This document shows, in pieces, positions 12,865-52,348 of a DNA stretch of 64,000 nt (position 1 is the first letter of the stretch; every line of letters starts with the position of its first letter). The notes under the pieces were generated by a model. It was not told the DNA's origin, did not search any database, and saw nothing but the letters and a program-made list of their open reading frames with translations. The position numbers and the translations under genes were made by a program. The DNA is taken from the NCBI GenBank assembly GCA_963743635.1, contig CAVUQO010000003.1, positions 672,001 to 736,000 on the forward strand, written 5' to 3'. This DNA is from Candidatus Babeliales bacterium. GTDB taxonomy: Bacteria > Babelota > Babeliae > Babelales > Vermiphilaceae.

Positions 12865-12883
12865 TTACCTAATTGGGGAACAT

Positions 12884-13861
12884 ATGAAAATTGGCATGCT
12901 TTTTCCGGGATACGGAAGTCAGTTCGTAGGTATGGGGAAGGAATTATATGATGATTCGCGCATTATGCAGGAATATTTTGAAGAAGCCGCAAATTGTTTA
13001 CCAATCAATTTCGTAAAATTATGCTTTGCTTCATCAGAAACTGAAATTGGGCATATGAGTCATGCATATCCCGCTTTGTTTTTGGTGAGCACGTTCTATT
13101 TATTCGATTCTTAAAGAAGAAGGAATCACTCCCGATTTTGTTGCAGGCTATGATACGGGCGTGTATGCCGCATTATTTGCAGGAGGCGGATTGAGCTTGC
13201 CTGATGGTCTTTACTTGCTGAATAAATATGCCCTATTGTATCAAGAAATGCTTGATGCGAGTGCTGTCCGATTTACGGGACTTCGCTTAATTGGATGTAA
13301 TACCGAAGATATTGAAATACTCGTTCGCGAGGCAACGACGCGCAGTAAATATGCACGTATTGGCATTTATGAATCACCACAACAAAATATTGTAACTGGT
13401 CATGAAGAAGCAGTGGGTGAGATTAGCGAATGCATTTTGGCTGGCAGAGAATGTAAAAGTTATGATGTGGGTATTGAGCGTGGATTGCATTCATCATTTA
13501 TGGATCCGGTTGCAGATGCAATTAAAGCCATATTTTGAAAAAGTTGATTTCAAAGATTTATCGATTCCGCTCTACACGAGCAATGATGTGGTGCCGATCA
13601 GTCAGGCGCAGGATCTTAAGGATCATATATTGCGCTATATGAGCGCGCCCGTATTATTAGTGCGCATTATTGAGCATATGGTTGAAACGGTTGACGTCAT
13701 CGTAGAGGTTGGACCCGGATCGGTGTTATCAACGCTAGTTAAAGAACGTTATCCTGATAAACCATGTATTGCGATAAATACATGATGAAGATATTGCAAC
13801 ACTTAAAGAAATGATATCACAAAACGAATCTACTCTAAACGACGAAACGGAGAACCGCTAA
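12884..13861 (+). CDS. fabD: FabD-like (malonyl-CoA:ACP transacylase fold) protein with a degenerate active site; frameshifted in this assembly
   Basis: LFPGYGSQFVGMGKELY, PDFVAGYDTG where GHSxG is expected, GLHSSFM, VEVGPGSVL; directly upstream of acpP; about 3 indels. Confidence 0.8.
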
Positions 13862-13862
13862 T

Positions 13863-14115
13863 ATGGCTTCATTTGATAGAAATGATACCTTACAAAAAAT
13901 TGTTAATCTCATGGTAACAGAACTCAAAATTGATCCAGCATGATGTGAAAGTTAATGTTTCATTCCAAGATCTCGGCGTTGATTCACTTGATATGGTGCA
14001 AATCATTATGAAGTGTGAAGAGCAGTTTGGTATTGAAATTCCTGATGAAATGGCTGAAAAATTTCACACCATTAATGATGTAGTTGAGTACATCAATGAA
14101 CGACGCACTAAGTAA
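13863..14115 (+). CDS. acpP: Acyl carrier protein (one indel near 13940)
   Basis: DLGVDSLDMVQIIMKCEEQFGIEIPDE with the phosphopantetheine Ser; N-terminal MASFDRNDTLQKIVNL lies in the adjacent frame. Confidence 0.9.
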
Positions 14116-14334
14116 CCCTGCGTGACGGCCTGACGGCACTCCTCAGGATGAGCGGATAAAATTTTTTATGATATTTTCTGCTGAATATGTTTATATTCAT
14201 TTCATTCTGAGTAGCGCGCACCTGCGTAGGTCGATGTAAAAAATAAAAAAGGCATTCGCATAAAGCGCATGCCTTTTTTTATAATATATTATTTCATTTC
14301 ATCCTGAGGAGTGCCGTCAGGCCGTCACGAAGGG
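14116..14334. repeat. REP/REPIN-like inverted doublet, family 1, filling the whole acpP-P1 intergenic space
   Basis: 36-bp arms at 14116-14151 and 14299-14334 match at 35/36 positions as inverted repeats; each arm abuts a stop codon. Confidence 0.9.
14245..14280. terminator. Bidirectional intrinsic terminator
   Basis: AAAAAAGGCAT...ATGCCTTTTTTT between convergent acpP and P1. Confidence 0.7.
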
Positions 14335-15911
14335 CTAGTAAGCAAATCCGCCTTTTGCCCAGACTGCCCATAAAGAACGTGTATTTTTAAGCGGCGGTAA
14401 ATCAGAAGGACGGATGCCTTCAAATTCCACCTCTCCCCCAACACCAAAATATGGCTGCACATTATGCATAGGATCCCATGCATAATTGAGATGCGTGAAT
14501 ATTTTGTGCGTCATTTGGCTTGATGTTGCTGCAGACTGCGGATCAATCTCATTACAGGTCACAAACACGGGAGAATTTTGATCGGCAACAAACATTTGCG
14601 CTTCGAATGGATTTCCATGCAGCGTTGCGGTGCTTTGTGTAACTGAGCTCCAGCTGACTGGCATTCCTGCTTCAACGTTTTGAATGCCTTTGAGTCCAAT
14701 GTGAAGCCAGTTGGCAGGAACAATCATCCAATGATATGAGTTCTCTACTTTTGATCCATCCGTTATAACCGATATCAAATCCAAGATGTCGATGTTGATA
14801 GGCAAACATGAACACAATATCAAATTGTAGATTTGCATTCACATTACAATCAAGAGTGGTGGCATTAATAGTTGGTATTGTGGTGCCGTTATAGTTGCCA
14901 TTTTATCAAATCTTTTTGAAAGAATGTAGCGGCTTCCAAAAGAGGCAAGCGTGTTAAAGCATGGATTGCTATCAAAAAGATCAAATGAGCGTCGTTGAGT
15001 GTCGTTGAAGAAATAGGTTCCATTCATATCAACCTATAAGTTTATGCGTTCATCATCATCTCGTTCCCAAATTAAGGTGTGACTCGTAAAGCAAAGCCCG
15101 AGTTCCCAGAAATGGCCGTTACCAAAATGGGAGTGAAGAAATATTCAGGATTTGGTTTGTTGCCGGTTGGTACTGCGGTACGCAAATGAAATCCAACGTG
15201 ACTTTTTTCATGATTTACAATCAGACCGCCGAGCATAAGAATAAGATCGGAGGCGCCGGTTTGATGTCGTGGGCCATTGATAATGCCGATATTTGAGTGC
15301 TTGCACTTGACCATAACTTACGCCCGCGATTGCTTGATTAAAACTATTTGCGGGTGGTTGGACTGCGTCTACATCCATGTAGAGTGGTGGGAATGGTACG
15401 TTGCCCCCATCGCAAATGACTGTTTCATCAAGACATACTTTCCACGTTGTTGAACCAACGGGCAGAATGGCGCGGAAATAAAAATTGTGATAATCCAACG
15501 AACCAGTCAAAGGTGGCGAGTGTATATGAAATGCTAGGGCGTGGTGCGACTACGCTTTCAAATTTTGGTGAAAGCCCAAAATAATCGGCGAGCATATCAT
15601 TTTGACCACGATCTTCAACCAGACTGCCAGACACGGTAAACGCATCATAACCAAAGAAATATTGCGCTATGCGATTGCGTATTGTAGGTTTTTGCATATT
15701 CGGGTGTGATTGAGAAGTTCGTATAAAAACCTTTACGATCATGACGATATAAAAATTGGCGTGATCCAACAAGATCGCGCGCAGCATTGCATGATGATGA
15801 GCGAGGAACCATAATGGTTTTGCCATATAAGGTGAAATCATCGGTGTGCGTAGTATGCGCATAGAGTATGCCAACAATGATACTGGTAACGCGGATGGTG
15901 GTGAATTTCAT
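14335..15911 (-). CDS. P1: putative outer-membrane beta-barrel family paralog (multiple frameshifts)
   Basis: Fragments carry PRSSSCNAARDLVG, MLADYFGL, HKIFTHLNYAW, PYFGVGGEVEF and the terminal WAVWAKGGFAY; AAGGAG RBS. Confidence 0.75.
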
Positions 15912-15934
15912 AAGCTACTCCTTTATTATCCCTC

Positions 15935-15986
15935 ACCCATTCGCTATTTTTCTCTCCCAGATCGAAAAATCCTCAGGGTGAATGGG
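15935..15986. repeat. Degenerate family-1 REP arm
   Basis: ACCCATTCGCTA...CCTCAGGGTGAATGGG resembles the arm at 6492-6551. Confidence 0.6.
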
Positions 15987-16056
15987 GTTAGTATCAGTTG
16001 CATGGAGCATACTACAGCTTTGCATGTATTAGCTAGAGTGTGCGTTCGATTGAGTA

Positions 16057-17883
16057 TTATTCAAAGGAGAATCCGCCTTTTACCCAAACGCCCCATTGGC
16101 TGATTGATGATTCAAGACAATCATCAAGGATGCATGATGAAAGACAGTCTTTTTTATTGTCTGATATGGAAGTGCATTTTCCGATTTCATATTCACCGCC
16201 AATGCCTAAAAAGAAGGTATAAGTATCATTGTAGTGCCAGTTGTAACTTACATGCGTGAATAACTTATCTGATAATCCTTGTGTGCTACTCAGATCGATA
16301 CTATCAAGGCTTAAAAAGGAGAGGGTTCCTGAAGTATATATTTGTTTGTTATTAATTGCATTTGCTGGAAGAGCCTCACCGCCATCGAATGATGCTTCTG
16401 CTAATATCCGATTATCGACTCCCGCAGTTTTGGAATGAACTGAACACCATCAACGCCGATCGGATAATTATTGGTCCCCGATCGAATTGTTGCTTTGCGT
16501 TCTATTGCTGCAAGTCGAACGGTAGCTTCCGGTTCTGGATGGATCTTTCAACGAAGCCAAAAACATATGCATCTCCTTTGAGCGCCCAAGAATTGCCATC
16601 AAGCCCGGGTGGTTGGCAGCGATCTTTCAAGCGTACATTTTCACATCCTCTAAACCAGTAAGTTATATCCAAAATCCCACGTAAAATTACGGGCGTAGCA
16701 TGATACGGCAAATACAGCATCCGCTTGAAAGTTTGATCCTGCAAATACATTGGCGCGTGGTAATATTTGCGATGGGAGAGAGTTCGTTTTGAAATTCAAA
16801 ATCTGACATTGGAATTCCCGGTTAATTGCGGTTGTTCGCGTGGTTACTGGCGAGACGTTGCGCGAGCATGTACTGACTATTTGGTTTATCAAATAAATCA
16901 AAACAGCGTATTTGCGATGTTTTGAACATGTAGGTGAGGTTTGCAAGTGCATGACCAGTCAGTTTTTTAGTTTGCAGATTCATTTTCCCAAAGCAAGACA
17001 TAAATGTTACCATTCGCGCCCAGTTCCCAATGGTGTCCATTGCCTACAATTGGTTGAAATACATATTCGCCATTAACGTGCGTGCCCGTTGGTATTACGA
17101 CACGCAATGCGATTCCCGCATGATACTCATCATCGCTTACTACATAACTTCCGATATTAATTTGAAGGTCTGCAATATGATGTGCCGTGATGCGGCGCGC
17201 AGTCATTGCTGATTTTGCCGCAGTCAAGTGGATTAAAGACTACCGATTGACCAAGATCTGGTGCGAATCCAGCAAAAAAAGTGCTTGCGTTGTTAAGCAA
17301 ATTGCTGCGATCAACTGCTGCCGGGGTCATATAGAGTGCGGTATAGTTATTAACCCCTGGATTGATGACCGTTTCATCAAAATTCAAGTTCCATTTTGTA
17401 TAGACATATGGTGCATGCACTTGCACGAAAACGATTATGACATTTCCATTTAAATGCTAAAAAAAGATCAAGATCAAGAATGAAGTTTTTTATTTTAGGA
17501 TCAACTGAAATGATACTCTGAAAATCAGTTGGTAATCCGAAATAATCGGCGAGCCAATCATGAGTATTACGTTGCGGGACTTGACTTCCTGAAATTCTAA
17601 TAAATTCCTCACAACTATTTTCAGGATGTTGTAAATCGGGCCCAAAGAGAAGTGATCCGATTGCGTCGCCATTGGTTGATTGCGTGTAGCTTGGTGCAAC
17701 AAAAAAACTGCCATGCCATTCTTCGACGCCATGTTTATACGTGTGTTGGTGCCATCCGGCGAATTCTCGAGCGAGATTGATTCCTTGGGAGCGAAAACCA
17801 AAATAAGGGCTGGTAATATTGGCGGCATGGGCACATGTGCCAGTGGTTAATATTATTGCCATCATTATATGATTGTGCTTCAT
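16057..17883 (-). CDS. P2: putative outer-membrane beta-barrel family paralog (multiple frameshifts)
   Basis: RSQGINLAREFAGW, WLADYFGLPTDF, GNGHHWELG, WALKGDAYV and terminal SQWGVWVKGGFSFE (stop at 16057); GGAGG RBS. Confidence 0.78.
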
Positions 17884-17961: not shown

Positions 17962-19926
17962 TTATCGATATGAGAGGCCAATCTTCAGCCAAAGACCCCA
18001 TTGGCTCATTGCGCAGTCGTGGCAACTTTGGATTCCGCAACATTTGTTTTTATAATTTTTCGGTCTTATTTTTGGTTTACATGCATCGTCCTCACAAGAG
18101 CCATGACTTCCAAATTCTAATTCAGCGCCAAAACCGCAATATGGGAACCAGTATGCTTCTTTTTCAATCTGTGTGTAGTTGACGTTCAGAAACAGTTTAT
18201 TTGAAATGCCTCGTGTACCAGCAAAATCGATCTGAGATTCTTTAATGTAGATCGGATCACTTGAACTGAATGCTTGTAATGCACCAGTGTTTGAGCGACT
18301 CAACACGGGAAGAAATATTCCATCATCTTCGGTGAATGCATACGCAGGGCTATCGGCTGCACTATTAGACGGTTGATCGACATTTCCCCTCGATCCACTG
18401 TGAATCGTTGCTTTGCTATCGGTTGCTGCAAGACGCACGGGAAGTCGATCAGTTGCGGGATTTGTGGCTGTAATAGTTCCTTCAAATCCTACTACGAATG
18501 CATCACCTTTGAGTGCCCAGCTATTTTCTGGAAAGATATCAGTACAGCATGGATCGGGACATATGGTTTCGCAACTTCTGCCCCAAAAGTTGTAACCGAT
18601 ATCTGCTTGAAATCCGCCTGATTGATATTCGAACATTAATGCAATATCAGCTTGCACGTTGATAGTTGAAGTTACCCGCATGCAGGTAATATTGGCAACT
18701 GGTGCAAACGCATTTTGGAATTCAACGCCCGCATTTGCATCACTTGGTTCATAGGCATCACTTGGAAGATAGGGATATGTAGGATTTGTTAATGAAGGGG
18801 TAAGACGCAGCGTTCCCAATTTTTCGGCGAGCATGTATCGGCTATTTGGTTTGCCACATAAATCAAAGGCGCGCATTTGGCGTGCTTTAAGCATATGGGT
18901 AATATATGCTTCCATATAAAAGCCATAACTTGTATTGGTTTCTTCATGAGTTATAAAAAGGAAGTGGCCAGTAATTTGTGCACCGACTTCCCAATGTTTG
19001 CCATTACCGATAATTGGTTCAAATACATATTCACCGCGTGGTCGCGTGCCGGTTGGTGCTGCAGCGAGAGCGCCGATGCCCAGATGATACGTTTCTTTTG
19101 CAAGAAAATTCCAACCAAGGATCATTTGTAGTTCACCAAAATTGTTAGTGACCATTGGCCCGCGGTTGCATTCATTATAGAACTTTGAGCATGATAATGC
19201 CTGCCATGCGAGTTGATTATAAGGCTCATTGCAGGGCATTGGTTGCCATGCAGGACCATCGGGTAATTGTGGTGCGTGTCCGGTAATATAGGCGGTGAAA
19301 TCGGTGTTCAACTGATTGCGCGTGATCGATGATTCGCCATTAAATGGATCATTGGGCATGCGATCTGCGCCGTACCATCCTTGAGGATATGGTTCAATAC
19401 CAAAATTTTCGATTATTTCATTGAAATGTAAGCGGCGACGGTTATGCACGAAAGGGCCTTGAAAGCGTAAATAAAGGCCATCATACCAATTATCAAGACC
19501 AACATAGAGTCCAAAATCAAGAATGAAATTTTCACTCGATGGATTGATTTCAAAGCAGCTCTGAAAATCCAGCGGCAAACCAAAATAGGGAGCAAACCAA
19601 TCTTTTGGGCCGCGATATGGATTGGAGATATCATATCCCGTTACATTGATGATCGATTTGCAACTATCGCATACGATATCATCGCCGAACAAACAACGCG
19701 CAATGTTTCCACCATTGAATGACTGCGTATATTCAGTGGTAACATTGAAACTAAAACTAAGTTCATCTTCCGAAGGGCGATTTATTTCACGATTCCAACC
19801 AACCATATGACGCGCAGCGTTTACCGCTTGTGAGCGGAAAGCAATATAAGGAGCTGGTTGTGCGAGGAATATTGGTGTGTGTGCGAGGATGCACCAAGCA
19901 AGAATAGTGCGATAAAGCGGCTGCAT
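17962..19926 (-). CDS. P3: putative outer-membrane beta-barrel family paralog
   Basis: Intact; signal peptide, RSQAVNAARHMVGW, GNGKHWEVG, GYNFWGRSCE, WALKGD, terminal WGLWLKIGLSYR. ATG 19926 follows AAGGAG. Confidence 0.85.
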   Translation of the reverse strand: MQPLYRTILAWCILAHTPIFLAQPAPYIAFRSQAVNAARHMVGWNREINRPSEDELSFSFNVTTEYTQSFNGGNIARCLFGDDIVCDSCKSIINVTGYDISNPYRGPKDWFAPYFGLPLDFQSCFEINPSSENFILDFGLYVGLDNWYDGLYLRFQGPFVHNRRRLHFNEIIENFGIEPYPQGWYGADRMPNDPFNGESSITRNQLNTDFTAYITGHAPQLPDGPAWQPMPCNEPYNQLAWQALSCSKFYNECNRGPMVTNNFGELQMILGWNFLAKETYHLGIGALAAAPTGTRPRGEYVFEPIIGNGKHWEVGAQITGHFLFITHEETNTSYGFYMEAYITHMLKARQMRAFDLCGKPNSRYMLAEKLGTLRLTPSLTNPTYPYLPSDAYEPSDANAGVEFQNAFAPVANITCMRVTSTINVQADIALMFEYQSGGFQADIGYNFWGRSCETICPDPCCTDIFPENSWALKGDAFVVGFEGTITATNPATDRLPVRLAATDSKATIHSGSRGNVDQPSNSAADSPAYAFTEDDGIFLPVLSRSNTGALQAFSSSDPIYIKESQIDFAGTRGISNKLFLNVNYTQIEKEAYWFPYCGFGAELEFGSHGSCEDDACKPKIRPKNYKNKCCGIQSCHDCAMSQWGLWLKIGLSYR

Positions 19927-20101
19927 ATTAATACTCCTTTTTTTGCGTATAGTTGCTTTAGCAGACAGACTACTATAAAGGGTTATCCTTTGGCTAGCCC
20001 TTTGGAATGGTTTGTGAGGCACGAGGAAACGTTTTTCTAGTAAATGTATTTTTCGATTGATATGTTCTTAAAAAATAGTTCCATAAAAAAAGGAGTTTCG
20101 C

Positions 20102-21631
20102 ATGAATAAATATTTCATATCGCTATTATTCATTTGTATGAGTGTACCTTTAAGTATGTATGCTAGTGATGATCATCAAACGGCGAATGTAGGGCTTGAG
20201 ACGTTGTTCGCTACGAAAGAAGTGTTATTGGACTCGGTGCGTAAAAAAGATAGTTGCAAAAAATTCTGCAATTTATGGATTCGCAATTGTTTGCGTGCGG
20301 CTGCGCTGAAAGTAGATGGTAATGTCCTAGTCGGTGGTGATGTAACCGTGAATGGTACCATTACTGCCAAGACCGCACCTGCGTGTATTTTTGAAGGTGG
20401 TAGCAATGGGCAAGTGTTGCTTGGGGTAACGAATGGCATTCCGGTATTTTCAACCCTGACTTCGCCCAATGACTCTGTTACGTTCTCGCCAGGGGCAGGA
20501 TCGTTAGGAATGAAGTTGAATCCATTCTATGGCAATATCGCACGCGTTGATCAAATATATGGTAATGATACCGGCCCTGATGCTGGATCGGTAAATGGCA
20601 AACCGTTTTTAACTCTCGGTGCCGCACTAACTCATGCAGGCGCATATGCCACCCCGACTACCCCGGTGGTCGTCTGGGTGTTTCCCGGTACCTATAATGA
20701 ATCAATTACCATTCCTAATAATGTAAGCCTTGTTGGACTATCCGCTGGGGGTGCTGCAGGGGTTGGCGGTGTTACGATTCAGCAAGTAAATGCTGCTACA
20801 ACGTTAGTAACTATGGGGCAGAATTCGTTCATTGAAAATGTGAATCTACAATTAACGGGTACAGCTTCCCTCACGGGCATTGCGATACCAACGGGGCCTG
20901 CCACTATTAAGTGTATCAAATTAAATGTAAGTAATGGGACACCCACCACTACATACGGAATTTTGGTTTCGGGGGATACCACAATAGATTCATCTATCAT
21001 CAACTCTAATGCATTTGGCATCTACGTTGACGCAGCCGTTTCTGGAACGATAAGCAATAGCATTGTGACGAGCAGTGGAGGTATTGCATTAGAAACCAAC
21101 AATGCAGGAGCATTATTCATTGCAAATGCATCAACTCTTAATGGAGCTACTGCAGATATATCACAAACTTTAGGTACGATAACGCTGGAAGATACTAGGC
21201 TTTTCAATTCAACGGCCAATGGCCTTAACTTTACGAGTACCATTTCACCTTCCACCCTCACGTGGGCCTCGACGGGAACTGTTTTGACAAATGCAAACCC
21301 GAACTATATGGTTCCAGGAACTGGAGCTGTCGCCACGACTACGGCAGCCGGTTTTGGGTATGTTATTCCGCAGCAATTAGTGGTTAGAAATTTGCAGGTA
21401 AAGGCACTGACGGGCCCAGGTGGAGTTACGACTACTTTTACGCTCTATAAAAATGGGGCGGCGATTCTCCCTGTTACACTGAGTGCTTCTATGACGGGTA
21501 CTGGTTCGCAAACTGTAGAAGATCTAACGCATAGCGTAACGTGCGCGCCCGGAGATGTTCTTTCGATGCAAATAGATAATCCTCTAACATCGACGCTTGC
21601 TAATGTAATGGTAGGCGTAGAGGTATATTAA
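20102..21631 (+). CDS. A1: secreted right-handed beta-helix (pectin-lyase-like) protein, putative adhesin
   Basis: Signal peptide; RVDQIYGND...GKPFLTLGAAL and VVVWVFPGTYNESITIPNNVSLVG resemble a beta-helix cap; T/S/G/N-rich coils; beta-sandwich-like C-terminus. Confidence 0.75.
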   Translation: MNKYFISLLFICMSVPLSMYASDDHQTANVGLETLFATKEVLLDSVRKKDSCKKFCNLWIRNCLRAAALKVDGNVLVGGDVTVNGTITAKTAPACIFEGGSNGQVLLGVTNGIPVFSTLTSPNDSVTFSPGAGSLGMKLNPFYGNIARVDQIYGNDTGPDAGSVNGKPFLTLGAALTHAGAYATPTTPVVVWVFPGTYNESITIPNNVSLVGLSAGGAAGVGGVTIQQVNAATTLVTMGQNSFIENVNLQLTGTASLTGIAIPTGPATIKCIKLNVSNGTPTTTYGILVSGDTTIDSSIINSNAFGIYVDAAVSGTISNSIVTSSGGIALETNNAGALFIANASTLNGATADISQTLGTITLEDTRLFNSTANGLNFTSTISPSTLTWASTGTVLTNANPNYMVPGTGAVATTTAAGFGYVIPQQLVVRNLQVKALTGPGGVTTTFTLYKNGAAILPVTLSASMTGTGSQTVEDLTHSVTCAPGDVLSMQIDNPLTSTLANVMVGVEVY

Positions 21632-21656
21632 TAGATAATTAAAAAAAGGAGTTGTA

Positions 21657-23266
21657 ATGAATAAACGTAGTGTATCAGTCTTAATAATGTGTCTAGGCAT
21701 CGCTATATGTTTGCCGTCATCGGCCAATCCAACAGACGATCAAATCGCGCGTGCAATCAGCGGAGAATTACCGTTTGCAGAACACGATGCATCGGATGTA
21801 GTCCGTAAAAAGAAGAAACGTTGGAAGAAATTGTGCGATGTAATTGTTAGTAAATGCTTAAGGGCAGGCGCGCTTAAAGTAGATGGTAATCTCGTGATTG
21901 ATGGTAACTTAACAGTAAATGATCTTTTGATTAATCACGCAGTAGCGTGCACTATCACGGGTGGTCTTGATGGGCAAGCATTGATAGGGTCAACTGGTTC
22001 AAATCCGGTTTTTAATTTCATAACTTCAGATTCTCATCACTCGGTTACTTTTTCTCCGGGTTCTGGATCGTTGGGTCTTGAAGCGGTAGCATTTTTTGGA
22101 AACGTAGCGCGCGTCGATCAAATATATGGTAACGATGCTACGGGTCTTGTGGGTGGAGCGCCATTTGCAACGATTACTGCAGCATTGGCTGCTGCGGGAA
22201 CCTATACTACGATATATGGTGATCCGGTAGTAGTATGGGTATTTCCCGGGGTGTATAGTGATACTGCATATTCTCCCGAAACGTTTCCCCTTAATATTTC
22301 CAATAACGTAAGTCTTGTAGGCATAGCAGCGGGTGCTCGCCCTGATGTTGGTGGGGTTACGATTCAGCAGCTCAGCGCTGCGGGGACGTCAACGTTAATC
22401 ACCATGGGGGTGGATACATTACTTGCAAATGTATCTTTACAACTGAGTACCACGAACAATGTTGCCCTTACGGGAATTTCTATTGCCACCGGACCTGCAA
22501 CAATTGATTCTATAGATTTAAATGTGAGTGCAGAATCAGGATCGGCAAATGCATATGGCATTCATGGTACCGGCGCAGCAACCATAGAGGATTCTGTAAT
22601 TACGGTTTCATCAACGGGAACTCAGGCGACGGCGGGTATTTTAGTTGATACTGCCAACGCCATCATGATGAGCAATAGCACTATAATGGTAACGAATACT
22701 GGGGGGGGAGCGCTGTAGGTGCAGAAACCAATAATGCCAGTGCATCATTCATTGCAAACGCATCAAGTGTGAGTGGTACTACTTCAGACATTTCACAACT
22801 TGCAGGGTCCATAATGCTTGCAGGCACAACGCTGGCGCACTCAACGGCAAATAATGGTTCATTTGCTAGTGCCTTTTCTCCTACCTTGCTTGTTTGGAAT
22901 TCACACACTGGGACCGGCACTGTACTTACTGGCACCAATTATATGGTGCCGGGAACTGCTGCGGTGAGCGCCTCCAATCCAGCTAATTTTGGGTATATTA
23001 TACCGCAGCAATCAATTGTAAGGAATTTACATGTGTATGCAGAAGAAGCTCCTGGTACAGGAAGAACTACTACCTTTACCTTATATAAAAATGGATCTGT
23101 AACTTCATTGACAACGTCTCTGAGTGGCACGGTGACTGCTAATAATGATCCTACTCATAGCGTATTATGCGAGGCTGGCGATGTACTTTCAATGCAGCTG
23201 ATTAATCCTTCATCGGGCACAGGATCTTCTTTGGGTAATATTTCGGTAAATGTAGAATTATATTAG
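21657..23266 (+). CDS. A2: paralog of A1, split by a frameshift at a G8 tract (22701-22708)
   Basis: Same motifs as A1 and A3; homology continues as AVGAETNNASASFIANAS in the next frame; G9 would restore the frame. Confidence 0.75.
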
Positions 23267-23328
23267 CGCTTAGTACATATAGTATATGTTTGATATGTGC
23301 GAAAAAGTGGTTTAAAAAGGAGCGTATT

Positions 23329-25212
23329 ATGAAAAAATACATGATATCACTATTATTATATTGCGTTGGGGTGAGCATGTGTACGCTGGGTGCTTCTCAT
23401 GCTTTCCAGGATGAACTACGTAATGTAAGTTTGGAAGATCTAGCTACGATCGGTAATCATCTTTCTGATCAGGATTATAGCATTTTAATTAAAAATGCTG
23501 ATATTGACTGTGTGTATATTCCAGATTCTTTAAAAGATGCGATTAAAGTTCTCATGCATCGGTATACTGATTTTGAAACGCATATCGATATATCTCCATT
23601 GTTGCTTAATGATACAATACACATTGCGGCGGAGGAAGACATATTGGTATGTATGCAAAAAGTGGTTGATATCTTGGATGTCGCAGAAATTGAAAAAACA
23701 GATCCTGCATTAAAAATAATAGGCGAATATATGCGAGATCTTGCATCGGGCGAGGCATTTATTTTTTCAGAGCAACAAGATGAGCATGAGGAAAATGTGC
23801 GTAAAAAAAAGTGCAAAACCTATTGCAATCTTTTGGTGCGCAATTGCTTACGCGCAGGAGCGGTGACGGTCAGCGGTAATGCGGTTATTGATGGTACGCT
23901 CACGGTGGATGGCACGGTCATTAATAATAATAGTAGCGCGGCCTTTAAATTTCCCGATGGTACGAATGGTCAACTGTTGATTGGGTCTACGGGGGGAATA
24001 GCTCAGTTTGCAAGCGCTACTTCATCAGATGGTTCTATTATTTTGATCCCTGGTCCTGGCACATTAGAACTTGAAGCTGTTCCTGTGTTTGGGAATGTAG
24101 CTCGCGTTGATCAGATATTTGGTAATGATAGCACTGGCAAGGTGAGCGGTGCGCCCTTCCTCACGATTGGTGCAGCGTTGAATGCTGCAGCTGCATATGC
24201 TTCGGGACCGGTGGTAGTCTGGGTGTTTCCAGGAATATATAATGAAGCGATTATCATTCCCGATAATGTCAGTGTTGTGGGTGTTTCTATGGGTGGCTCT
24301 GTGAATGTTGGCGGCATTACGATTCAGCAAACGAGTGGTGCTACAACGTTAGTAACTATGGGACAAAATACAGCGCTTGAAAATATTACCCTACAATTAA
24401 CCGGAAACAGTACATCTACTTTCACGGGCATTGATATTCCTACGGGGCCTGCGACGATCAATCGCACAAGATTAGAGGTTAATAATACTACGGGAACAGC
24501 ATATGGCATTTTGGCTTCTGGTGATACTGCCGTAAATGTGGATGCATCGAATATCACAACTATCTCAGGAGGAACCTCCCGAGGTGTTTACGTTAATGGT
24601 GCTGCCAACGTCATCATGAGTAAGAGCACGATAACAACATCGGGTTATAATGCGATTGGTGTAGAAACAGTCAATGAATATGGATTATTCACTGCAAATG
24701 CATCGATTATTAGTGGGACAACAGCAGATATTTCAGAAAGTGCCGGGGATATTATCCTTGCAGGCACAACGTTGGCAAACTCAACAGCAAATTACCTTGG
24801 ATTCACTACTACAATCTCACCAGCAATAATATCTTTTGCAACTCTGAGTAACACATTAACTGGCGGCGTCCCCAATTCGGGTGCAGTGTTTCCAGGGACA
24901 GCGGCAGTCGTTATATACAACGGCTCTCATCATGATCGCAATATTGGCTATACTCCCCCTCAGAAATTGACGGTTAAAAATATGTATGTGGCAACTACAG
25001 CACCTGTTGTGAGTAACCTATTTAATGTTAATCTGTATTATAACAACTTTGGCAGGCTGGCATCACCCACCTTTGATACATATACTACTGCGGTGAATGT
25101 TACTGATGCTAGTGGAATGAGCACTTCGAGTGATCTGATTATTGTGCAAATAGACTGGGACCTTGAGTCTACTCAAATTACTGATCTCATGATAAGCGCG
25201 GTTCTATATTAA
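23329..25212 (+). CDS. A3: paralog of A1 with a longer acidic N-terminal region
   Basis: AAGGAG RBS, MKKYMISLL signal peptide, VRKKKCKTYCNLLVRNCLRA, RVDQIFGND, VVVWVFPG. Confidence 0.75.
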   Translation: MKKYMISLLLYCVGVSMCTLGASHAFQDELRNVSLEDLATIGNHLSDQDYSILIKNADIDCVYIPDSLKDAIKVLMHRYTDFETHIDISPLLLNDTIHIAAEEDILVCMQKVVDILDVAEIEKTDPALKIIGEYMRDLASGEAFIFSEQQDEHEENVRKKKCKTYCNLLVRNCLRAGAVTVSGNAVIDGTLTVDGTVINNNSSAAFKFPDGTNGQLLIGSTGGIAQFASATSSDGSIILIPGPGTLELEAVPVFGNVARVDQIFGNDSTGKVSGAPFLTIGAALNAAAAYASGPVVVWVFPGIYNEAIIIPDNVSVVGVSMGGSVNVGGITIQQTSGATTLVTMGQNTALENITLQLTGNSTSTFTGIDIPTGPATINRTRLEVNNTTGTAYGILASGDTAVNVDASNITTISGGTSRGVYVNGAANVIMSKSTITTSGYNAIGVETVNEYGLFTANASIISGTTADISESAGDIILAGTTLANSTANYLGFTTTISPAIISFATLSNTLTGGVPNSGAVFPGTAAVVIYNGSHHDRNIGYTPPQKLTVKNMYVATTAPVVSNLFNVNLYYNNFGRLASPTFDTYTTAVNVTDASGMSTSSDLIIVQIDWDLESTQITDLMISAVLY

Positions 25213-25228
25213 GCATATGGGCCCGACT

Positions 25229-25265
25229 AAAGAAAGAACCTCCGAATTTCATCGGAGGTTCTTTT
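25229..25265. terminator. Bidirectional terminator between A3 and P4
   Basis: AAAGAACCTCCGA-ATTTCA-TCGGAGGTTCTTT. Confidence 0.8.
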
Positions 25266-25293
25266 ATTTATGTGAGGTACGTAAGTACCGACT

Positions 25294-25338
25294 GCTCATC
25301 CTGCGTAATGCGGTGCGTATGTAACGACGATGGAAGGG
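25294..25338. repeat. Single degenerate family-1 REP arm abutting the P4 stop codon
   Basis: GCTCATCCTG...GGAAGGG immediately before TCA at 25339. Confidence 0.55.
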
Positions 25339-27291
25339 TCAGTTATATGAAGTACCTGCCTTCAACCATAAGCCCCATTGTGTGAGCGCACAGCTGGTGC
25401 AGCATGAACCGCAATTGGTGGAACAATTTGATGATGAGCATGATGTATCACAACAGTCACCATACGGTTGCGGCACGAAGCATACTTTGCTGGTGTTGCC
25501 AAATTCTACTTCGGCACCAAAGCCAAAATATGGCGTCCAATTTGTTTCTTCGCGATCATTCCATCCCCAATTTAGATGAGTAAATATTTTATTGGAGATG
25601 CCGCGCGCGCCTTGAAGATTGAAGTTAGATTCTCGAATTAGAATCGGTGCGCTTGAGGTATACAGTTGATTTGCAGGATATTCACTGATTGCTTGGTCAA
25701 CGTAGCGGGTTACTTCGATACCAGTAGCCGTACCGAAGGTGGCAGTTGCAGCAATTGAACTATCGGCGTACATGTTAGAAGGATCTTGTGGTGTAACGGG
25801 CGTGTAGTCGACGCCATTACGTAAGTTTGAGCCTTGATGAATGGTGGCAGTGCTATCAGTTGCAGCGACGGGGACTGGTTGCACTGCATAAGGATACATT
25901 GCATCATCTGCTACAAAGCCGTAGACACGGTTATCGCCTTTGAGGGCCCAGCAACCATATGGTTTTGATGTGCATTCATTGATGCAGATCTTTTCGCACG
26001 ATTTGCCCCAGAAGTTGTATCCAATATCCCATGCGAAATTATCCCTTTGATATTGAAAGCTAAATGCCATATCAGCTTGCGCACCAACACTGACACGTAC
26101 ATCACGTTGCGTTAAATTAGCAACGGGTGCAAATTCATTGGCAAATGCAATACCTGCATTGGATTCGCCATCAAGTACTGGGTTAGAGTTTTCATTTGAT
26201 GCAAGGCGTTGTGCAATCATGTATCGGCTACTTGTACCATTACATGCCAAATCAAAACAGCGTCTTTGATTGGTGCTAAACAAATGCATGATATTGATTT
26301 CAGCAAAGAATCCAAAGCGTGATTCATCAGTATCAGAACGCCACCACATATGATGTGCAGTTATTTGTCCGCCAAGTTCCCAAAATTTGCCATTACCTAT
26401 AATTGGTTCAAAAAGATAATCGCCTTTGCACCCATAACCAGGTCGTGTGCCAGTTGGAGCCGCAGTGTAGATACCAAGCCCAAGGTGGTAATCTCCTTCA
26501 TCATCGTTCAAAAAATTCCAGCCTAGCACGAAGCGCACTTCACCAAAACCGTTCAATGTCACTTGACTTTGATCGCATTGAGCTACAATTTGACTGCACA
26601 TGAGTGATTCCCAACATACATTATCAGGAAGTGATGGTACGCAGCCACTGCTATAATTTAAAAACTGGCTGTTGAGATCGGTAACAGTAACCGAACTTGT
26701 TTCGCTGTCATTACTGATTGTGTCTGGTCCAAAATAACCTTGGAAATAACCGACGGTGCCATTTGAGATGATGCTTTCTTTAGCATTGAGAGTCCAAGCC
26801 GTGTGTACGTATGGCGCATGAAGTCTGAAATATAATCCTTCAACCCATTGGTCAAGGCCGGTATAAAAACTAAAATCTAAAAGATAATTGGTGATGTGGG
26901 GATTAAAGCTGACAGAACTTTTAAAATCGCGTGGTAATCCAAAATAATCAGCAAGCCAATCTGAGGGTCCTCGATCATTGCGTTGCGATCCCGAAACGAT
27001 AATTGATGGTCCGCAATCACTGCATACCAAATCATTGCCAAAGAGAGCTCCAGTCAGATGATCATCTCGGAAAGTACGCGTATAAGCAAAGGTAAGATTC
27101 ATGCTTGCGTAAAATTCATCACCCAATTTTCGATTGATACCCCAATTAGGATTGTTCCAACCAACCATTTGGCGTGCAGTATCCAAACTTTGTGATCGCG
27201 GAATAATTTTGGTTACGGTACCTGCATGGGTGAAATGTACGATACTAGTGCAAGCGATTAACAGCATTAATTTTTTGGTGAATTTCTTCAT
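25339..27291 (-). CDS. P4: Cys-rich putative outer-membrane beta-barrel paralog
   Basis: Intact; all family motifs; Cys-rich penultimate loop; ends WGLWLKAGTSYN. Confidence 0.85.
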   Translation of the reverse strand: MKKFTKKLMLLIACTSIVHFTHAGTVTKIIPRSQSLDTARQMVGWNNPNWGINRKLGDEFYASMNLTFAYTRTFRDDHLTGALFGNDLVCSDCGPSIIVSGSQRNDRGPSDWLADYFGLPRDFKSSVSFNPHITNYLLDFSFYTGLDQWVEGLYFRLHAPYVHTAWTLNAKESIISNGTVGYFQGYFGPDTISNDSETSSVTVTDLNSQFLNYSSGCVPSLPDNVCWESLMCSQIVAQCDQSQVTLNGFGEVRFVLGWNFLNDDEGDYHLGLGIYTAAPTGTRPGYGCKGDYLFEPIIGNGKFWELGGQITAHHMWWRSDTDESRFGFFAEINIMHLFSTNQRRCFDLACNGTSSRYMIAQRLASNENSNPVLDGESNAGIAFANEFAPVANLTQRDVRVSVGAQADMAFSFQYQRDNFAWDIGYNFWGKSCEKICINECTSKPYGCWALKGDNRVYGFVADDAMYPYAVQPVPVAATDSTATIHQGSNLRNGVDYTPVTPQDPSNMYADSSIAATATFGTATGIEVTRYVDQAISEYPANQLYTSSAPILIRESNFNLQGARGISNKIFTHLNWGWNDREETNWTPYFGFGAEVEFGNTSKVCFVPQPYGDCCDTSCSSSNCSTNCGSCCTSCALTQWGLWLKAGTSYN

Positions 27292-27375
27292 GCCCAACTC
27301 CTTATATTTTTACTCTTATTTTTTTACACATTAAGATATACCTTTTTTTGAAGGTTTATTCTACGACGGAAGGAA

Positions 27376-29358
27376 TCAGTTGTATGATGTGCCAATCTTG
27401 AACCAGACACCCCATTGATTTGGCGCGCAATTCGGGCAGCATTCACCACTATTGCTGCAATTATTGATGGTGCGTGAGCAGCTCACTATAGTACAACCTG
27501 TTTGGAAACAATTGTTTGGGCAGCAGGGACCTTTTGCAGAACTGAGTTCAACTTCAGCACCTACGCCAAGATAGGGAACCCAGTTACGATTTTCATTTTC
27601 AGTCCACGCCCAATTAAAATGGGTAAATAATTTGTGTGAAAAACCAGTAGTGCCACCCAGATTGAAATCGCATTCCTGAATGAAAATTGGTGGATTTGAG
27701 GCATATATGGCAATTGAGCTTTCTGGAAGTATGGCAACATTATTGTCGGCAAGAGATACAATGTTATCAGCATAAAAATTAGTAACTTGCATCGGTTGTA
27801 TGGGAGTGTAATCAACTGAATGAGTTAAATTTGAACCAGCATGAATTGTCGCTTGACTATCGCTGACTGCGAGTTTAATGGCGAGTGATTGCATCGGTCC
27901 ATTATTAACAAAACCATAAACGCGTTCATCACCTTTTAATGCCCAGGTTCCCATTGATGAAGAAGAGCTGTTATTAATGCATAATTTCTCGCAACTTCTT
28001 CCCCAGAAATTATATCCAAGATCCCATTGGAAGCCATTCATGTTATAAGATAAACAGAAGGCAACATCACCTTGAGCAGAAATAGTAGAAGTGACACTCC
28101 GGCGTGTTAGATTTGCAACGGGAGCATAATTATTAGCAAATTCTAAACCAAGTGTGTCGACTGCAGATTCAAGCATAGGATATGTAGTGCCATTTGAAGA
28201 GAGTTCTTGCGCTAACATATAGCGGCTATTGATACCCGCTGAGCAAAGATCAAAACAGCGTGTTTGGCATGCTGCAAAAAGATGGGTGATATTTGCTTCA
28301 AGGTAAAATCCGAAACTTTTTTCTTCATCATCACTTCTCCACCAAATCTGATGAGCAGTTATTTGACCACCAAGTTCCCAATGTTTGCCATTACCCACAA
28401 TCGGCTCAAAAGCATAGAGTCCTGTTTTTCCTTCCCCGATACGACTACCCGTTGGGGCTGCCGCATAGATTCCAGCACCAAGATGGTAATCAGCTGCTGC
28501 ATTATCGAGGAAATTATACCCAAGTACAAAGCGTAGTTCAGCAAATCCGTTGAGTACAAGATTGTCGCATGCACAGCTATTATCAAATCTACTGCAACAC
28601 AATGGCTGCCAGGTAATCGTTCCAAGATCTGAACACGGTCCATATGTTTCGCAAGAGGCCTCTCCATATAATGCATAATTATTATTGATGCGTGGTACTG
28701 TATTGCCATTACCATATTCTAAAAATGTTCTTGTAAGATTGGCTACAGGAACATCATTGCTTGAAAAATAGCCTTGAAAGTAACCAAGAGATCCTGTTGA
28801 AGTTATGTTTTCTGTTGCATTAAGGCTCCAACGAGTATTTACATAAGGTCCATAAATTTTGAAATATAATCCATTAAGCCATCGATCGAGACCGAGATAA
28901 AGGCTGAAATCCAAAATAAAATTTTGAATACGAGGAACAAGCAAAACCGTGCTTTGATAATCACGGGGTAAACCAAAATAATCAGCGAGCCAATCATGTG
29001 GCCCCCTGTCTGATGCGGCTGAACCGGAAATATAGAGCCCTTGCGTAACAATATTCACGCCAGCCTCAATAGCGGTAGTATTACATATGCATGAGGTATC
29101 GTCGCCGAAAAGACTATATGCAAGATTTGCTGGTTTGAATGTTCGTGTGTATTCGAAGGTGAGATTGAAGCTGGTATACAAGCTATCTTGTGGATAACGA
29201 TTGATACCCCATTCAGGATTATTCCAGCCAACCATTTGGCGCGCTGCATTAAAACTTTGTGAGCGAGGAATTATTTTATTGGTGGTGCCTGCATTACAAA
29301 GATGCGCCATGCTCATAAGCATTGTAAGACAAAGTAATATGCGGTTGCATTGAGTCAT
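27376..29358 (-). CDS. P5: Cys-rich putative outer-membrane beta-barrel paralog
   Basis: Intact; family motifs; ends WGVWFKIGTSYN. Confidence 0.85.
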   Translation of the reverse strand: MTQCNRILLCLTMLMSMAHLCNAGTTNKIIPRSQSFNAARQMVGWNNPEWGINRYPQDSLYTSFNLTFEYTRTFKPANLAYSLFGDDTSCICNTTAIEAGVNIVTQGLYISGSAASDRGPHDWLADYFGLPRDYQSTVLLVPRIQNFILDFSLYLGLDRWLNGLYFKIYGPYVNTRWSLNATENITSTGSLGYFQGYFSSNDVPVANLTRTFLEYGNGNTVPRINNNYALYGEASCETYGPCSDLGTITWQPLCCSRFDNSCACDNLVLNGFAELRFVLGYNFLDNAAADYHLGAGIYAAAPTGSRIGEGKTGLYAFEPIVGNGKHWELGGQITAHQIWWRSDDEEKSFGFYLEANITHLFAACQTRCFDLCSAGINSRYMLAQELSSNGTTYPMLESAVDTLGLEFANNYAPVANLTRRSVTSTISAQGDVAFCLSYNMNGFQWDLGYNFWGRSCEKLCINNSSSSSMGTWALKGDERVYGFVNNGPMQSLAIKLAVSDSQATIHAGSNLTHSVDYTPIQPMQVTNFYADNIVSLADNNVAILPESSIAIYASNPPIFIQECDFNLGGTTGFSHKLFTHFNWAWTENENRNWVPYLGVGAEVELSSAKGPCCPNNCFQTGCTIVSCSRTINNCSNSGECCPNCAPNQWGVWFKIGTSYN

Positions 29359-37044: not shown

Positions 37045-37097
37045 TCGAACAACTCCTAGAATTGAGGATGGATGATATGTTTTTTATTGACTACATC

Positions 37098-37137
37098 ATC
37101 CTAGAACAAGTAAGTTTTTTTTTCTAGAGTTTTTTTT
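37098..37137 (-). promoter_or_regulatory. Shared paralog promoter motif upstream of P8
   Basis: AAAAAAACTC-TAGAAA-N17-TAGGAT with an A9 tract. Confidence 0.6.
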
Positions 37138-37166
37138 ATTTTGTCTAAAATATGCGAGGAAATAGT

Positions 37167-37195
37167 AAAGCCCCCAACTTTCGTCGGGGGCTTTT
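37167..37195 (-). terminator. Terminator of P9
   Basis: AAAGCCCCC...GGGGGCTTTT. Confidence 0.7.
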
Positions 37196-37219
37196 GCGTA
37201 CCATCAAACGCTTTGTGCA

Positions 37220-39320: not shown

Positions 39321-39528
39321 CAGACAACTCCTTTTATTGATGGTTGACAATATGCTTTTGATAGTACGTGATGATCATATACAGGTTTCGAATTTTATTG
39401 CTACATTTTTTTTGAATTACTCAGTCTCGCTATGCTCTCTCCTCGGGCGAATTGGGAAATAATACTTTTTTGAAGAGCAATGCTCTTTATCTTTGCTTAG
39501 ATTCTGGCGAGGTTAAATATATATCAGT

Positions 39529-47451: not shown

Positions 47452-47474
47452 AGCAGGTTATGGAGATACGAAAG

Positions 47475-52315: not shown

Positions 52316-52320
52316 TTTGT

Positions 52321-52348
52321 TTGACAAAGACCCCTTATGCGATACACT
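52321..52348 (+). promoter_or_regulatory. Sigma70-type promoter of spoVG
   Basis: TTGACA-N16-TACACT. Confidence 0.55.

Follow-up and report, generated by a model that had tools for sequence, protein, structure and literature searches.

A tandem triplet of predicted trimeric fibre proteins within a cysteine-rich barrel array of Candidatus Dependentiae

Introduction

We know of no established mechanism for host attachment or entry in Dependentiae (TM6), whose hosts are protists. A literature search, largely of sources outside subscription journals, found no paper tying the phylum to fibres, collagen-like proteins, tail fibres or adhesins, and the accessible parts of the Chromulinavorax and Babela genome papers name no adhesin. 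Three tandem genes in a 64,000-nucleotide stretch of a Candidatus Babeliales genome (the window) bear on this question. Their products, here A, B and C, look exported and are encoded inside an array of barrel genes on the opposite strand. A first-pass annotation, made from the sequence alone, took them for surface fibres or glycan-binding proteins, possibly displayed by or assembled with the barrels. We asked what kind of protein A, B and C are and whether they belong with the barrels. We favour, at a probability of roughly 0.55, the reading that they are Sec-exported homotrimeric fibres and form part of a mosaic adhesin family in Candidatus Dependentiae.

Results

Locus layout and the three paralogs

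The three proteins proved to be paralogs. Relative to A, the N-terminal part of B is 49% identical, its C-terminal part 58% and C 46%, and the similarity of A to C (blastp, 3e-109) is well above chance. The motifs listed in the first-pass annotation, GN..(V/I).G..TV, G..GQ.L(L/I)G.T and GN(V/I)ARVDQI(Y/F)GND...G.PF.T(I/L).AAL, were all present in the A/B/C alignment. The description of three paralogs therefore holds for their kinship but not for B as a single ORF, since a frameshift divides it into two ORFs in the assembly. In a tree, A, C and their close relatives formed one clade (support 100/100) and, judged from sequence, the triplet arose by tandem expansion specific to this lineage. The genes do lie inside an opposite-strand barrel array, as had been noted, because the flanking minus-strand genes are paralogs modelled as beta-barrels.

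A and B are separated by 25 bp and B and C by 23–62 bp, and a terminator scan found at neither junction anything comparable to the hairpin after C. Because the only such terminator follows C and the gaps are short, A-B-C looks like one operon. A promoter scan performed no better on the sequence than on shuffles (13 found, 14.7 expected).

Table 1. Features of the fibre locus, in window coordinates
Feature	Position	Strand	Basis or remark
Barrel paralog 1	17962..20022	-	Divergent from A; likely start 19926
Paralog A	20102..21631	+	509-aa ORF; signal peptide, acidic linker, fibre-like segment to residue 142, beta-helix, head
Predicted Sec signal peptide of A (MNKYFISLLFICMSVPLSMYA), residues 1–21	20102..20164	+	Read by eye from sequence
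N-terminal module of A: RKK..CKK.CNL..RNC, GNVLVGGDVTVNG, GSNGQVLLGVT	20240..20527	+	Alignment
Right-handed parallel beta-helix of A, residues 143–381, with GNIARVDQIYGND...PF.T..AAL cap	20528..21244	+	AlphaFold, structure and sequence matches
TNF/C1q-like jelly-roll head of A, residues 384–509, predicted trimeric	21251..21631	+	AlphaFold, Foldseek, trimer model
Paralog B	21657..23266 (ORFs 21657–22718 and 22769–23266)	+	353 + 165 aa in present assembly
G8 homopolymer at break in B	22701..22708	+	G9 or G6 restores frame
Paralog C	23329..25212	+	Likely start the MKKYMISLL methionine at 23329; ORF callable from 23290 (640 aa)
Hairpin terminator, 14-bp stem	25232..25265	+	Strong; 3' of C, between convergent C and barrel genes
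Barrel paralog 2	25339..27297	-	Convergent with C
Barrel paralog 3	27376..29358	-	Modelled copy: outer-membrane beta-barrel plus extra domains, 4.1% Cys

N-terminal region

All three translations begin with signal-peptide-like N-termini. In the AlphaFold monomer of A, residues 1–142 have pLDDT below 50. This region carries a basic/Cys motif whose cysteines in A are C52, C56 and C63; the CxxxCxxxxxxC spacing is kept in the nearest family members, and the alignment shows the first cysteine missing in B. C has an additional helical domain of ~130 aa (“CVYIP”) between signal peptide and basic/Cys motif. We detected no outer-membrane barrel, lipobox or known anchor in A, B or C, and the best ESM Atlas score for the N-terminal module, 0.86, was below the threshold for a lead and gave no usable match. 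The genome encodes two secretins; it gave no match to the DsbA Pfam model, though at 85% completeness a DsbA gene could be missed.

The beta-helix core

The AlphaFold model of A (mean pLDDT 76.5) is confident over residues 143–509. Residues 143–381, mostly with pLDDT above 90, form a beta-helix with an N-terminal cap helix. The T/S/G/N-rich segments previously called coils are real, but in the model they are the rungs of this helix. Foldseek, suggested in the first-pass annotation for comparison with tailspikes and giant-virus fibres, put phage proteins on top in the PDB: the K2-2 tailspike 8iq5 (3e-8), the phage 7-7-1 tail fibre 9rkv and the Fri1 tailspike 6c72, which are the Klebsiella K2-2 TSP, an Agrobacterium phage fibre and Acinetobacter phage gp49, respectively. 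Giant-virus proteins were also matched. Structural alignment with VIA-align gave Z scores of 20.8–17 to more than 50 beta-helix entries, with pectin methylesterases, tailspikes and alginate epimerases tied at Z ~20 over 204–220 residues.

In sequence-based searches, the family profile matched two phage entries of the PDB, “Tail Spike protein, gp124” (8fqc) at 4e-10 and tail fibre 9rkv at 4e-6, the latter over query positions 83–214. The cap motif, described as the start of right-handed beta-helices, does align to both pectinesterase and phage tailspike caps. B scored 27.9 bits with DUF1565 (PF07602; 1.9e-6), above the cut-off of 20.3, and several homologs bear a precomputed PF07602 annotation; A and C had no DUF1565 match and only weak Pfam matches to Beta_helix or Pectinesterase. 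NCBIfam likewise yielded LIC10774, NosD and para_beta_helix, none of them strong. PHROGs returned nothing for A, B or a 726-aa paralog, and one weak tail-protein match for C.

A predicted trimeric tip

The C-terminal domain had been described as variable. It is instead a conserved jelly-roll, most divergent in C. The absence of an autotransporter barrel was borne out, as there is no such Pfam match and the modelled C-terminus is a small beta-sandwich/jelly-roll of 126 residues. With neither a C-terminal barrel translocator nor a YadA anchor by Pfam or in the model, A, B and C do not class as type V or trimeric autotransporters. Foldseek matched the tip of A to 4-1BBL chains (6cpr_C, 5.7e-4, TMt 0.46) and, in BFVD, to C1q and collagen-repeat proteins with rmsd 1.9–2.9 Å over 127–133 columns; among these, Klosneuvirus collagen-repeat proteins and a phage C1q-domain protein superposed at ~2 Å. 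The nearest ESM Atlas clusters were mostly viral. Pfam C1q, TNF and BclA_C gave no match in A, B or C at E values up to 1. By its modelled structure, the tip falls within the trimerising TNF/C1q-like jelly-roll superfamily.

Homotrimer modelling had been put forward as a check. Three copies of the tip alone (residues 378–509 of A) were predicted to form a trimer with an ipSAE of 0.94, well over the best of three controls (0.00). At least 89% of contacts agreed between runs, and partner pLDDT was at least 90. Of proteins whose solved structure is a pair of one chain, 20 of 30 reach the ipSAE mark used; of those with a single chain in the solved structure, 1 of 23 does. The pass may owe something to likeness to solved TNF/C1q trimers. 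On these models, A, B and C are probably homotrimeric.

Relatives in the phylum and in viruses

The N-terminal module occurs in nine copies in the window's own genome and in 17 of 200 other sampled genomes of the phylum. Its passengers there are collagen repeats (7e-25), collagen plus YadA_head (9e-7), a weak H_lectin match, or a beta-helix. Because one module is shared by such different passengers, we place A, B and C in a mosaic family of trimeric fibres. Distribution is uneven: just 9 of the 200 genomes yielded the beta-helix core, so these fibres are not a core requirement of the lifestyle.

Beyond the phylum, there are likenesses in giant viruses. A structure search matched A to Clandestinovirus A0A8F8KSL3 (E 8e-24, TMq 0.61, 26% identity over 453 columns spanning helix and tip) and to Edafosvirus A0A3G4ZVB5 (3e-18). 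Among 20 loci on viral contigs, several from giant-virus MAGs had 27–33% identity over most of residues 131–509. Viral and bacterial copies fell on opposite sides of the tree (support 91/91).

The cysteine-rich barrels

The barrel family here comprises eight full copies and some broken ones, 36–64% identical. The modelled copy (pLDDT 85.3, pTM 0.85) is a closed barrel, and Foldseek matched it to FapF (3e-9, TMt 0.63–0.69), FadL, CymA and a COG4313 channel. By sequence, Pfam gave only a faint Phenol_MetA_deg match, and a PDB profile search with the barrel alignment returned noise alone (E ~0.4). Cysteine content is 2.9–4.7%, against 1.43% in long ORFs genome-wide.

We compared the placement of the two families across genomes, the synteny test that had been proposed. 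They are linked in the closest relatives, where barrels flank the fibre genes (L016–L018, 3 of 63 loci), and in one other genus (G030, LepA 81% identical), where three BclA-like collagen fibres with the same N-terminal module sit at the equivalent place in the barrel array. They are unlinked in ten other genomes that have both (G001/G111, G002/G098, G003/G128, G094, G124, G093, G075, G082, G117 and G176); in G093, a short-type barrel relative lies 9 kb from a fibre gene. The claim that fibres are displayed by or assembled with barrels thus comes down to co-location in the closest relatives and G030.

A poly-G run in paralog B

The frame of B breaks in a run of eight G, the sole G/C run of at least 7 in the window and one of seven of at least 8 in 1.45 Mb. 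Run lengths were compared on contigs rather than reads. Otherwise identical records carry an intact B, either with G6 (535 aa) or with G9 (536 aa). Of runs X1 to X4, two have contigs that span the stretch of G: X1, possibly the source sample, and X2, which is independent. Both have G9 and no other difference over 5.5 kb. Because both have G9, the G8 of the present assembly may be a homopolymer assembly error.

Discussion

The description as surface fibres or glycan-binding proteins fits the tailspike-like beta-helix, the predicted trimeric TNF/C1q-like head, the homology of the cap to tailspikes and the relatives in giant-virus MAGs. In the fibre reading, each chain would be built from a family-specific N-terminal base module (basic/Cys motif plus GN..I.G.LTV.G), a short fibre segment, a tailspike-type beta-helix and a trimer-making TNF/C1q-like tip. 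The base module would hold the fibre at the cell envelope with helix and tip pointing outward, and these outer parts may bind glycans of the protist host or its phagosome, perhaps cutting them too, and so promote attachment and uptake. Giant-virus fibrils, phage tailspikes and Bdellovibrio MAT fibres act in this manner. The triplet would provide three different tips.

An alternative is that A, B and C are not adhesins but secreted or periplasmic polysaccharide-active enzymes (depolymerases, lyases, esterases or epimerases) acting on host or bacterial glycans. The helix aligns as well (Z ~20) with pectin methylesterases, alginate lyases and epimerases and pectate lyases as with tailspikes, its cap aligns to Pectinesterase A (1e-5), and two adjacent rungs each keep an acidic residue (D352 in 27 of 28 sequences, E331 in 22 of 28). 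These ties to enzymes make an enzymatic role possible as well, and the two readings overlap, because many tailspikes both bind and cleave. However, membership of the pectin methylesterases (CE8, PF01095) finds little in its favour: C scored 15.2 bits where the cut-off is 27, matching profile positions 11–99 only, and the pectinesterase PDB alignments are likewise confined to the cap (chain residues 12–77). The predicted trimeric TNF-like tip is an adhesin feature, as is the homology of the fibre segment to a tail fibre of a phage, and elsewhere the same N-terminal module bears collagen and YadA-head passengers. We therefore consider a purely enzymatic identity unlikely. That A, B and C derive from a prophage or phage-tail-like particle, as tailspikes left behind in the chromosome, is highly improbable. 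Their nearest solved relatives are indeed phage tailspikes and tail fibres, and the ESM Atlas neighbours of the tip are largely viral; but no phage gene family appeared among the window ORFs scanned, the neighbours being barrels and housekeeping genes, the proteins have signal-peptide-like N-termini and a bacterial module common to other Dependentiae proteins, and the tree sets viral copies apart from bacterial ones.

Two further proposals concern how the fibres, as we prefer to read A, B and C, are held and controlled. Fibres and cysteine-rich barrels could be parts of one surface system in which the barrels export the fibre base or keep it in place, for instance through disulfides between the N-terminal cysteines of the fibres and barrel loops. 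The triplet nested in the array here and in L016–L018, the collagen-fibre triplet with the same module in the same slot of G030, the high cysteine content of the barrels and the cysteine spacing kept in the nearest fibres all favour this. Against it, the families lie apart in ten other genomes possessing both, barrels are widespread (more than 1314 homologs found) and fibres patchy, and B lacks the first cysteine. Furthermore, the barrel array is found near lepA in G030, G111 and G124 (20–30 kb from it) as well as in the window, so the shared position may simply be inherited. On this evidence a two-part system seems improbable. That B is switched on and off by slippage of its poly-G run has somewhat more to recommend it, although we lean against it. 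The frame breaks exactly in a rare run, otherwise identical records differ in its length, A and C have no such run, and other long G/C runs lie within or adjoin genes with signal-peptide-like starts. But the X1 and X2 contigs agree with each other, the G6 and G9 alleles are both in frame, unlike on/off switching, and ftsK in the window is frameshifted too. A bolder picture, which we regard as speculative and quite unlikely in full, combines these elements. Dependentiae would own a host-recognition fibre family whose phylum-specific base is cysteine-stapled into a Cys-rich barrel lattice, giving an envelope that resembles the chlamydial outer-membrane complex by convergence. Phage- and giant-virus-type tips (beta-helix plus TNF-like, collagen plus C1q-like, YadA-head, lectin) would be swapped as cassettes at a fixed slot in the barrel array and would set which protists can be entered, with the poly-G of B adding on/off or length variation.

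If A, B and C are fibres, they are the bacterium's best candidates for host attachment, concrete and expressible: exported, probably trimeric proteins in which a shared bacterial base carries binding parts of phage and giant-virus type. Mosaic trimeric fibres, an idea demonstrated in predatory Bdellovibrio, would then apply also to intracellular parasites of an unrelated phylum. The family further points to a design of protein common to Dependentiae and giant viruses with similar hosts. The link between fibres and barrel array bears on how the envelope is constructed in this phylum.

Among known systems, phage tailspikes and tail fibres (8iq5, 9rkv, 8fqc, 6c72) share with A, B and C the beta-helix, the trimeric design (predicted here) and, at the sequence level, the cap RVD...G.D..G....PF.TI.AA...A..GD.V.V.PGTY. 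In contrast to them, A, B and C are chromosomal with no virion genes nearby, a signal peptide and bacterial N-terminal module replace the virion-binding domain, and the tip is a TNF/C1q-like jelly-roll. Fibre-type proteins of giant viruses have helix and tip in common with A; taken as a group, they are without the Dependentiae N-terminal module. Giant viruses and Dependentiae infect the same type of host, amoebae and other protists. Bacillus BclA fibres, which have a C1q-like head, resemble the G030 triplet in their collagen repeats (BclA_C match weak, 4e-5, under the cut-off) and A, B and C in a trimeric, here modelled, form with a jelly-roll tip, but BclA has collagen where A, B and C have a beta-helix.

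The polymorphic membrane proteins of chlamydiae are multi-copy beta-helix autotransporters of obligate intracellular bacteria with a Cys-rich outer membrane, and some pmp genes are known to phase-vary at poly-G runs. A, B and C share the multi-copy beta-helix design, the obligate intracellular setting and the Cys-rich outer membrane; they differ in having no autotransporter barrel and in their predicted trimeric architecture. A chlamydial origin of the genome was considered and set aside. Of the chlamydial markers, FHIPEP had no match in the genome, nor did Chlam_OMP6, for which the control was also silent; the labels of barrel homologs, and of related loci recovered with a 17-row family alignment, indicate Candidatus Dependentiae as the most likely affiliation.

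By architecture, the family appears closest in design to the MAT (mosaic adhesive trimer) fibres of Bdellovibrio bacteriovorus. As the accessible part of their description has it, these carry a signal peptide and then a conserved, beta-rich N-terminal domain of ~130 aa, which is thought to be surface-located with an unknown partner (PMC10769870). The likeness is architectural only; MAT tips were absent from the matches of our family profile in the PDB. MAT fibres are much longer (~1000 aa, against ~500–640 aa here), the body here is a DUF1565-type beta-helix, and no S74 chaperone domain was seen in A, B or C, unlike in MAT. The host of Bdellovibrio is a bacterium, whereas that of Dependentiae is a protist. 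Both families appear to combine a signal peptide and a family-specific N-terminal domain with a trimeric fibre and swappable TNF-like or tailspike-like tips, and both occur in multiple copies in a bacterium that invades cells.

Three tandem fibre-type paralogs

As the first-pass annotation had proposed, A, B and C are three tandem paralogs on the strand opposite to the flanking Cys-rich barrel genes. In the alignment, identity to A was 49% for the N-terminal part of B, 58% for its C-terminal part and 46% for C; A matched C at 3e-109 in Blastp, and every motif listed in that annotation was present in the alignment. Because the intergenic gaps are short (25 bp for A/B, 23–62 bp for B/C) and the only strong terminator-like hairpin follows C, A-B-C look like a single operon, divergent from one barrel gene and convergent with another. 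The genome is a 1.45-Mb assembly in three contigs (GC 0.42, completeness 85%), of which the window covers C3:672001-736000. The stretch occurs in sequencing runs from soil and peat metagenomes, and of four related genome loci two come from Candidatus Dependentiae.

Features of the region (window coordinates unless a contig or locus is named)
Feature	Position	Strand	Description
A	20102-21631	+	509 aa
B	21657-22718 plus 22769-23266	+	353+165 aa
G8 run in B	22701-22708		
C	23290-25212, likely start 23329	+	640 aa
Terminator-like hairpin	25232-25265		14-bp stem, just 3' of C
Barrel gene, divergent	17962-20022	-	
Barrel gene, convergent	25339-27297	-	
Barrel gene, modelled	27376-29358	-	
Decayed, split or truncated barrel copies	14675-17874; 36067-39350		
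Truncated barrel duplicate	36067-37044		
Barrel copy in two pieces	37220-37897 plus 37947-39350		
Barrel copy in four frames	C3:814550-816617		
Two diverged barrel paralogs	63036-64000 and on (C3:735036-738594)	+	30% identity
ftsK	47394-49861		four ORFs
mutS-like ORF	52316-54780		528 aa
Stretches with no ORF of at least 200 aa	3317-6676; 12865-14334		
Other G/C runs of 8-10	C2:477672; C3:139712; C3:283573; C3:503294		
Second surface-protein region	C3:150001-186000 (L014, L015)		
Mini-fibre triplet of genome G030	L111 13680-16156		

Fold and predicted trimer

Family-level matches were weak in NCBIfam, and in Pfam A weakly matched Beta_helix and C Pectinesterase; DUF1565 exceeded its cut-off in B only (27.9 vs 20.3 bits). 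In an AlphaFold model of A built on a 39-sequence alignment (mean pLDDT 76.5), residues 143–509 were confident and residues 1–142 fell below a pLDDT of 50; residues 143–381 formed a right-handed beta-helix and residues 384–509 a beta-sandwich. Foldseek against the PDB placed phage tailspikes and fibres (8iq5, 9rkv, 6c72) on top and pectin methylesterases next, and the C-terminal domain by itself matched the TNF-family ligand 4-1BBL. By VIA-align, methylesterases, tailspikes, alginate epimerases and lyases were tied (Z 17–21 over ~200–250 residues). These models leave no doubt about the beta-helix fold but do not settle the activity. D352 (27/28) and E331 (22/28), on adjacent rungs, are the only conserved acidic residues in the helix body and may mark a catalytic or ligand site.

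The best viral model in BFVD was a Clandestinovirus protein (8e-24, 26% identity over 453 columns), and an Edafosvirus protein, also from a giant virus, scored 3e-18. For the tip domain, matches with an rmsd of ~2 Å were collagen-repeat proteins of Klosneuvirus and a C1q-domain protein of a phage. Searched against PDB sequences, the family profile matched 8fqc, the phage 'Tail Spike protein gp124', at 4e-10 and the 7-7-1 tail fibre at 4e-6 over query positions 83–214, a stretch that takes in the fibre segment; at 1e-5 it also matched the Pectinesterase A cap.

Three copies of A residues 378–509 gave an ipSAE of 0.94 (0.93, 0.94 and 0.94 in three runs), with at least 89% of contacts in common and a partner pLDDT of at least 90; the best of three controls gave 0.00. 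In the model, then, the jelly-roll tip trimerises. Among proteins solved as pairs of one chain the mark used was attained in 20 of 30 cases, against 1 of 23 for those solved as single chains; likeness to solved complexes may yield such a pass. Since TNF and C1q trimers are well known, the predicted trimer shows likeness to them and is not proof of assembly.

A probable common base with different passengers

The N-terminal module of these proteins consists, in order, of a signal peptide, an acidic stretch, a basic/Cys motif and ...CNL.V...L..GSL.VS.NA.I.GNLTV.GTI; C and some relatives carry an extra helical domain with an (F/C)VYIP motif between signal peptide and acidic stretch. This part reappears at the start of very different ORFs, from ~190 to 3071 aa long. 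Its profile was found at nine places in the window's own genome and in 17 of the 200 other genomes sampled from the phylum, representing six families and often in multiple copies (E up to 1e-5). The passengers included Collagen repeats (7e-25), Collagen plus YadA_head (9e-7), H_lectin (1e-4, weak and under the cut-off) and beta-helix. All of these are parts of trimeric adhesins, which agrees with the trimer model and fits the module as the probable common base of the fibres; comparison of the ORFs shows what we take to be one base module with swapped adhesin passengers.

A second fibre cluster in the same genome (C3:150–186 kb) contains two members of the family among glycosyltransferases and Ig-like proteins, one of 726 aa and one of 1539 aa, the longer repeating the fibre segment three or four times. 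The glycosyltransferases of this surface-protein region are of GT2 type and the Ig-like proteins, several in number, of Big_13 type; distant barrel relatives lie at each end, and a 978-aa protein begins with a thioredoxin domain.

The helix-plus-tip core was patchy, occurring at 1e-10 in 9 of the 200 other genomes from the phylum (one copy apiece), in 59 metagenome loci and on 20 viral contigs, which include several giant-virus MAGs. We built a tree of 28 sequences, leaving out three exact duplicates, a 1546-aa protein with a long insert and every row that covered less than 300 of the 379 query residues. A 91/91 branch parted IMG/VR viral rows from Dependentiae rows, and A, C and their closest metagenome relatives formed a 100/100 clade. 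These groupings indicate that the triplet is a local expansion, and nothing in this tree points to a recent exchange with viruses.

Broken reading frames

The genome has only seven G/C runs of at least 8, and B loses frame at one of them, a G8 run present in neither A nor C. Two otherwise identical public proteins are intact B of 535 and 536 aa, their sole difference (GG versus GGG) corresponding to G6 and G9. Contigs from two sequencing runs, X1 (possibly the source sample) and X2 (another study), each have one G more than the window and are otherwise identical over 19900–25400. B is therefore intact in the contigs and records checked besides the window. The G8 either reflects an assembly error at the homopolymer or represents a minority allele; contigs alone do not separate the two. 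Four further G/C runs lie between or within genes whose products have signal-peptide-like starts, and are possible further slippage sites.

In ftsK, a single TGA interrupts the frame behind the membrane domain, and the motor domain contains two frameshifts, one of them at a GGG; taken alone, the gene may be a pseudogene or reflect assembly indels. The mutS-like ORF matched only MutS domains III and V, and the sequence upstream has no open frame that would encode domains I and II. Together these genes point either to assembly indels or to decay of the genome. The long ORF-poor stretches and the broken genes suggest that the region has a low coding density or is decaying.

The barrel array and its possible link to the fibres

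The minus strand carries eight full-length barrel paralogs (614–710 aa, mutual identity 36–64%) together with split, truncated and degraded copies, over ~14.7 to 46.5 kb of the window. No Pfam family matched them except for one faint Phenol_MetA_deg hit; they have more than 1314 homologs, the named ones all from Candidatus Dependentiae. Their Cys content is 2.9–4.7%, versus 1.43% in long ORFs genome-wide. One paralog gave a confident AlphaFold model (pLDDT 85.3, pTM 0.85) matching outer-membrane barrels, FapF (3e-9, TMt 0.63–0.69) and then FadL, CymA and a COG4313 channel, so the earlier designation of a barrel array was correct. Decayed and split copies, and a truncated one 95.7% identical to its neighbour, show recent duplication and decay in the array. 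Another copy and two diverged paralogs lie further along the contig.

Do fibres and barrels form a two-part system? We regard this as a minority reading. Barrels adjoin fibre genes in only three of 63 related loci (L016–L018), the closest relatives at 43–53% identity, where the genes are arranged as in the window; L019 had a weak 23% match. The array lies elsewhere in five of six other genomes with the helix core (in G093 a short-type barrel relative is 9 kb from the fibre gene), and four of five genomes with several N-module genes lack barrel linkage, which speaks against such a system. In its favour, genome G030 has three tandem N-module genes (263–283 aa) inside its barrel array on the opposite strand, with short collagen repeats and weak BclA_C matches; the same slot is thus filled by fibres with different passengers in two genera, which is suggestive. 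In G030, G111 and G124, as in the window, the array and lepA share a contig region, the barrels being 20–30 kb from lepA in those three genomes, and a shared slot can also be an inherited position. G111 and G124 lack the fibres-in-array layout, though about as distant as G030 (LepA identity to the window's genome 80%, 80% and 81%, respectively). The G030 genes encode BclA-like mini-fibres, each with the N-module, a short collagen stretch and a C1q-like head; the middle gene contains a G7 run.

Proposed function and comparison with known fibres

We favour a fibre-adhesin role for A, B and C, with a probability of about 0.55 for this reading as a whole; fold and trimer are much more certain than surface location and host role. 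The proteins have signal-peptide-like starts, and their chains would be exported by Sec and trimerise afterwards. The genome has two secretin genes, and secretins could provide a route for folded proteins. The N-module would anchor the fibre at the envelope, possibly by its three cysteines and basic cluster, and helix and tip would bind, and perhaps cleave, host glycans.

We found no report of Dependentiae fibres of this kind in the literature searched, which included portions of the Chromulinavorax and Babela papers. The closest described design is the Bdellovibrio MAT fibre family (PMC10769870), in which a signal peptide is followed by an invariant N-domain that presumably attaches to a still unknown element of the surface, and a trimeric fibre bears swappable tips, TNF-like domains among them. 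Mosaic trimeric fibres, tailspikes and collagen/C1q fibres are an already known kind; new here are the base module and the phylum.
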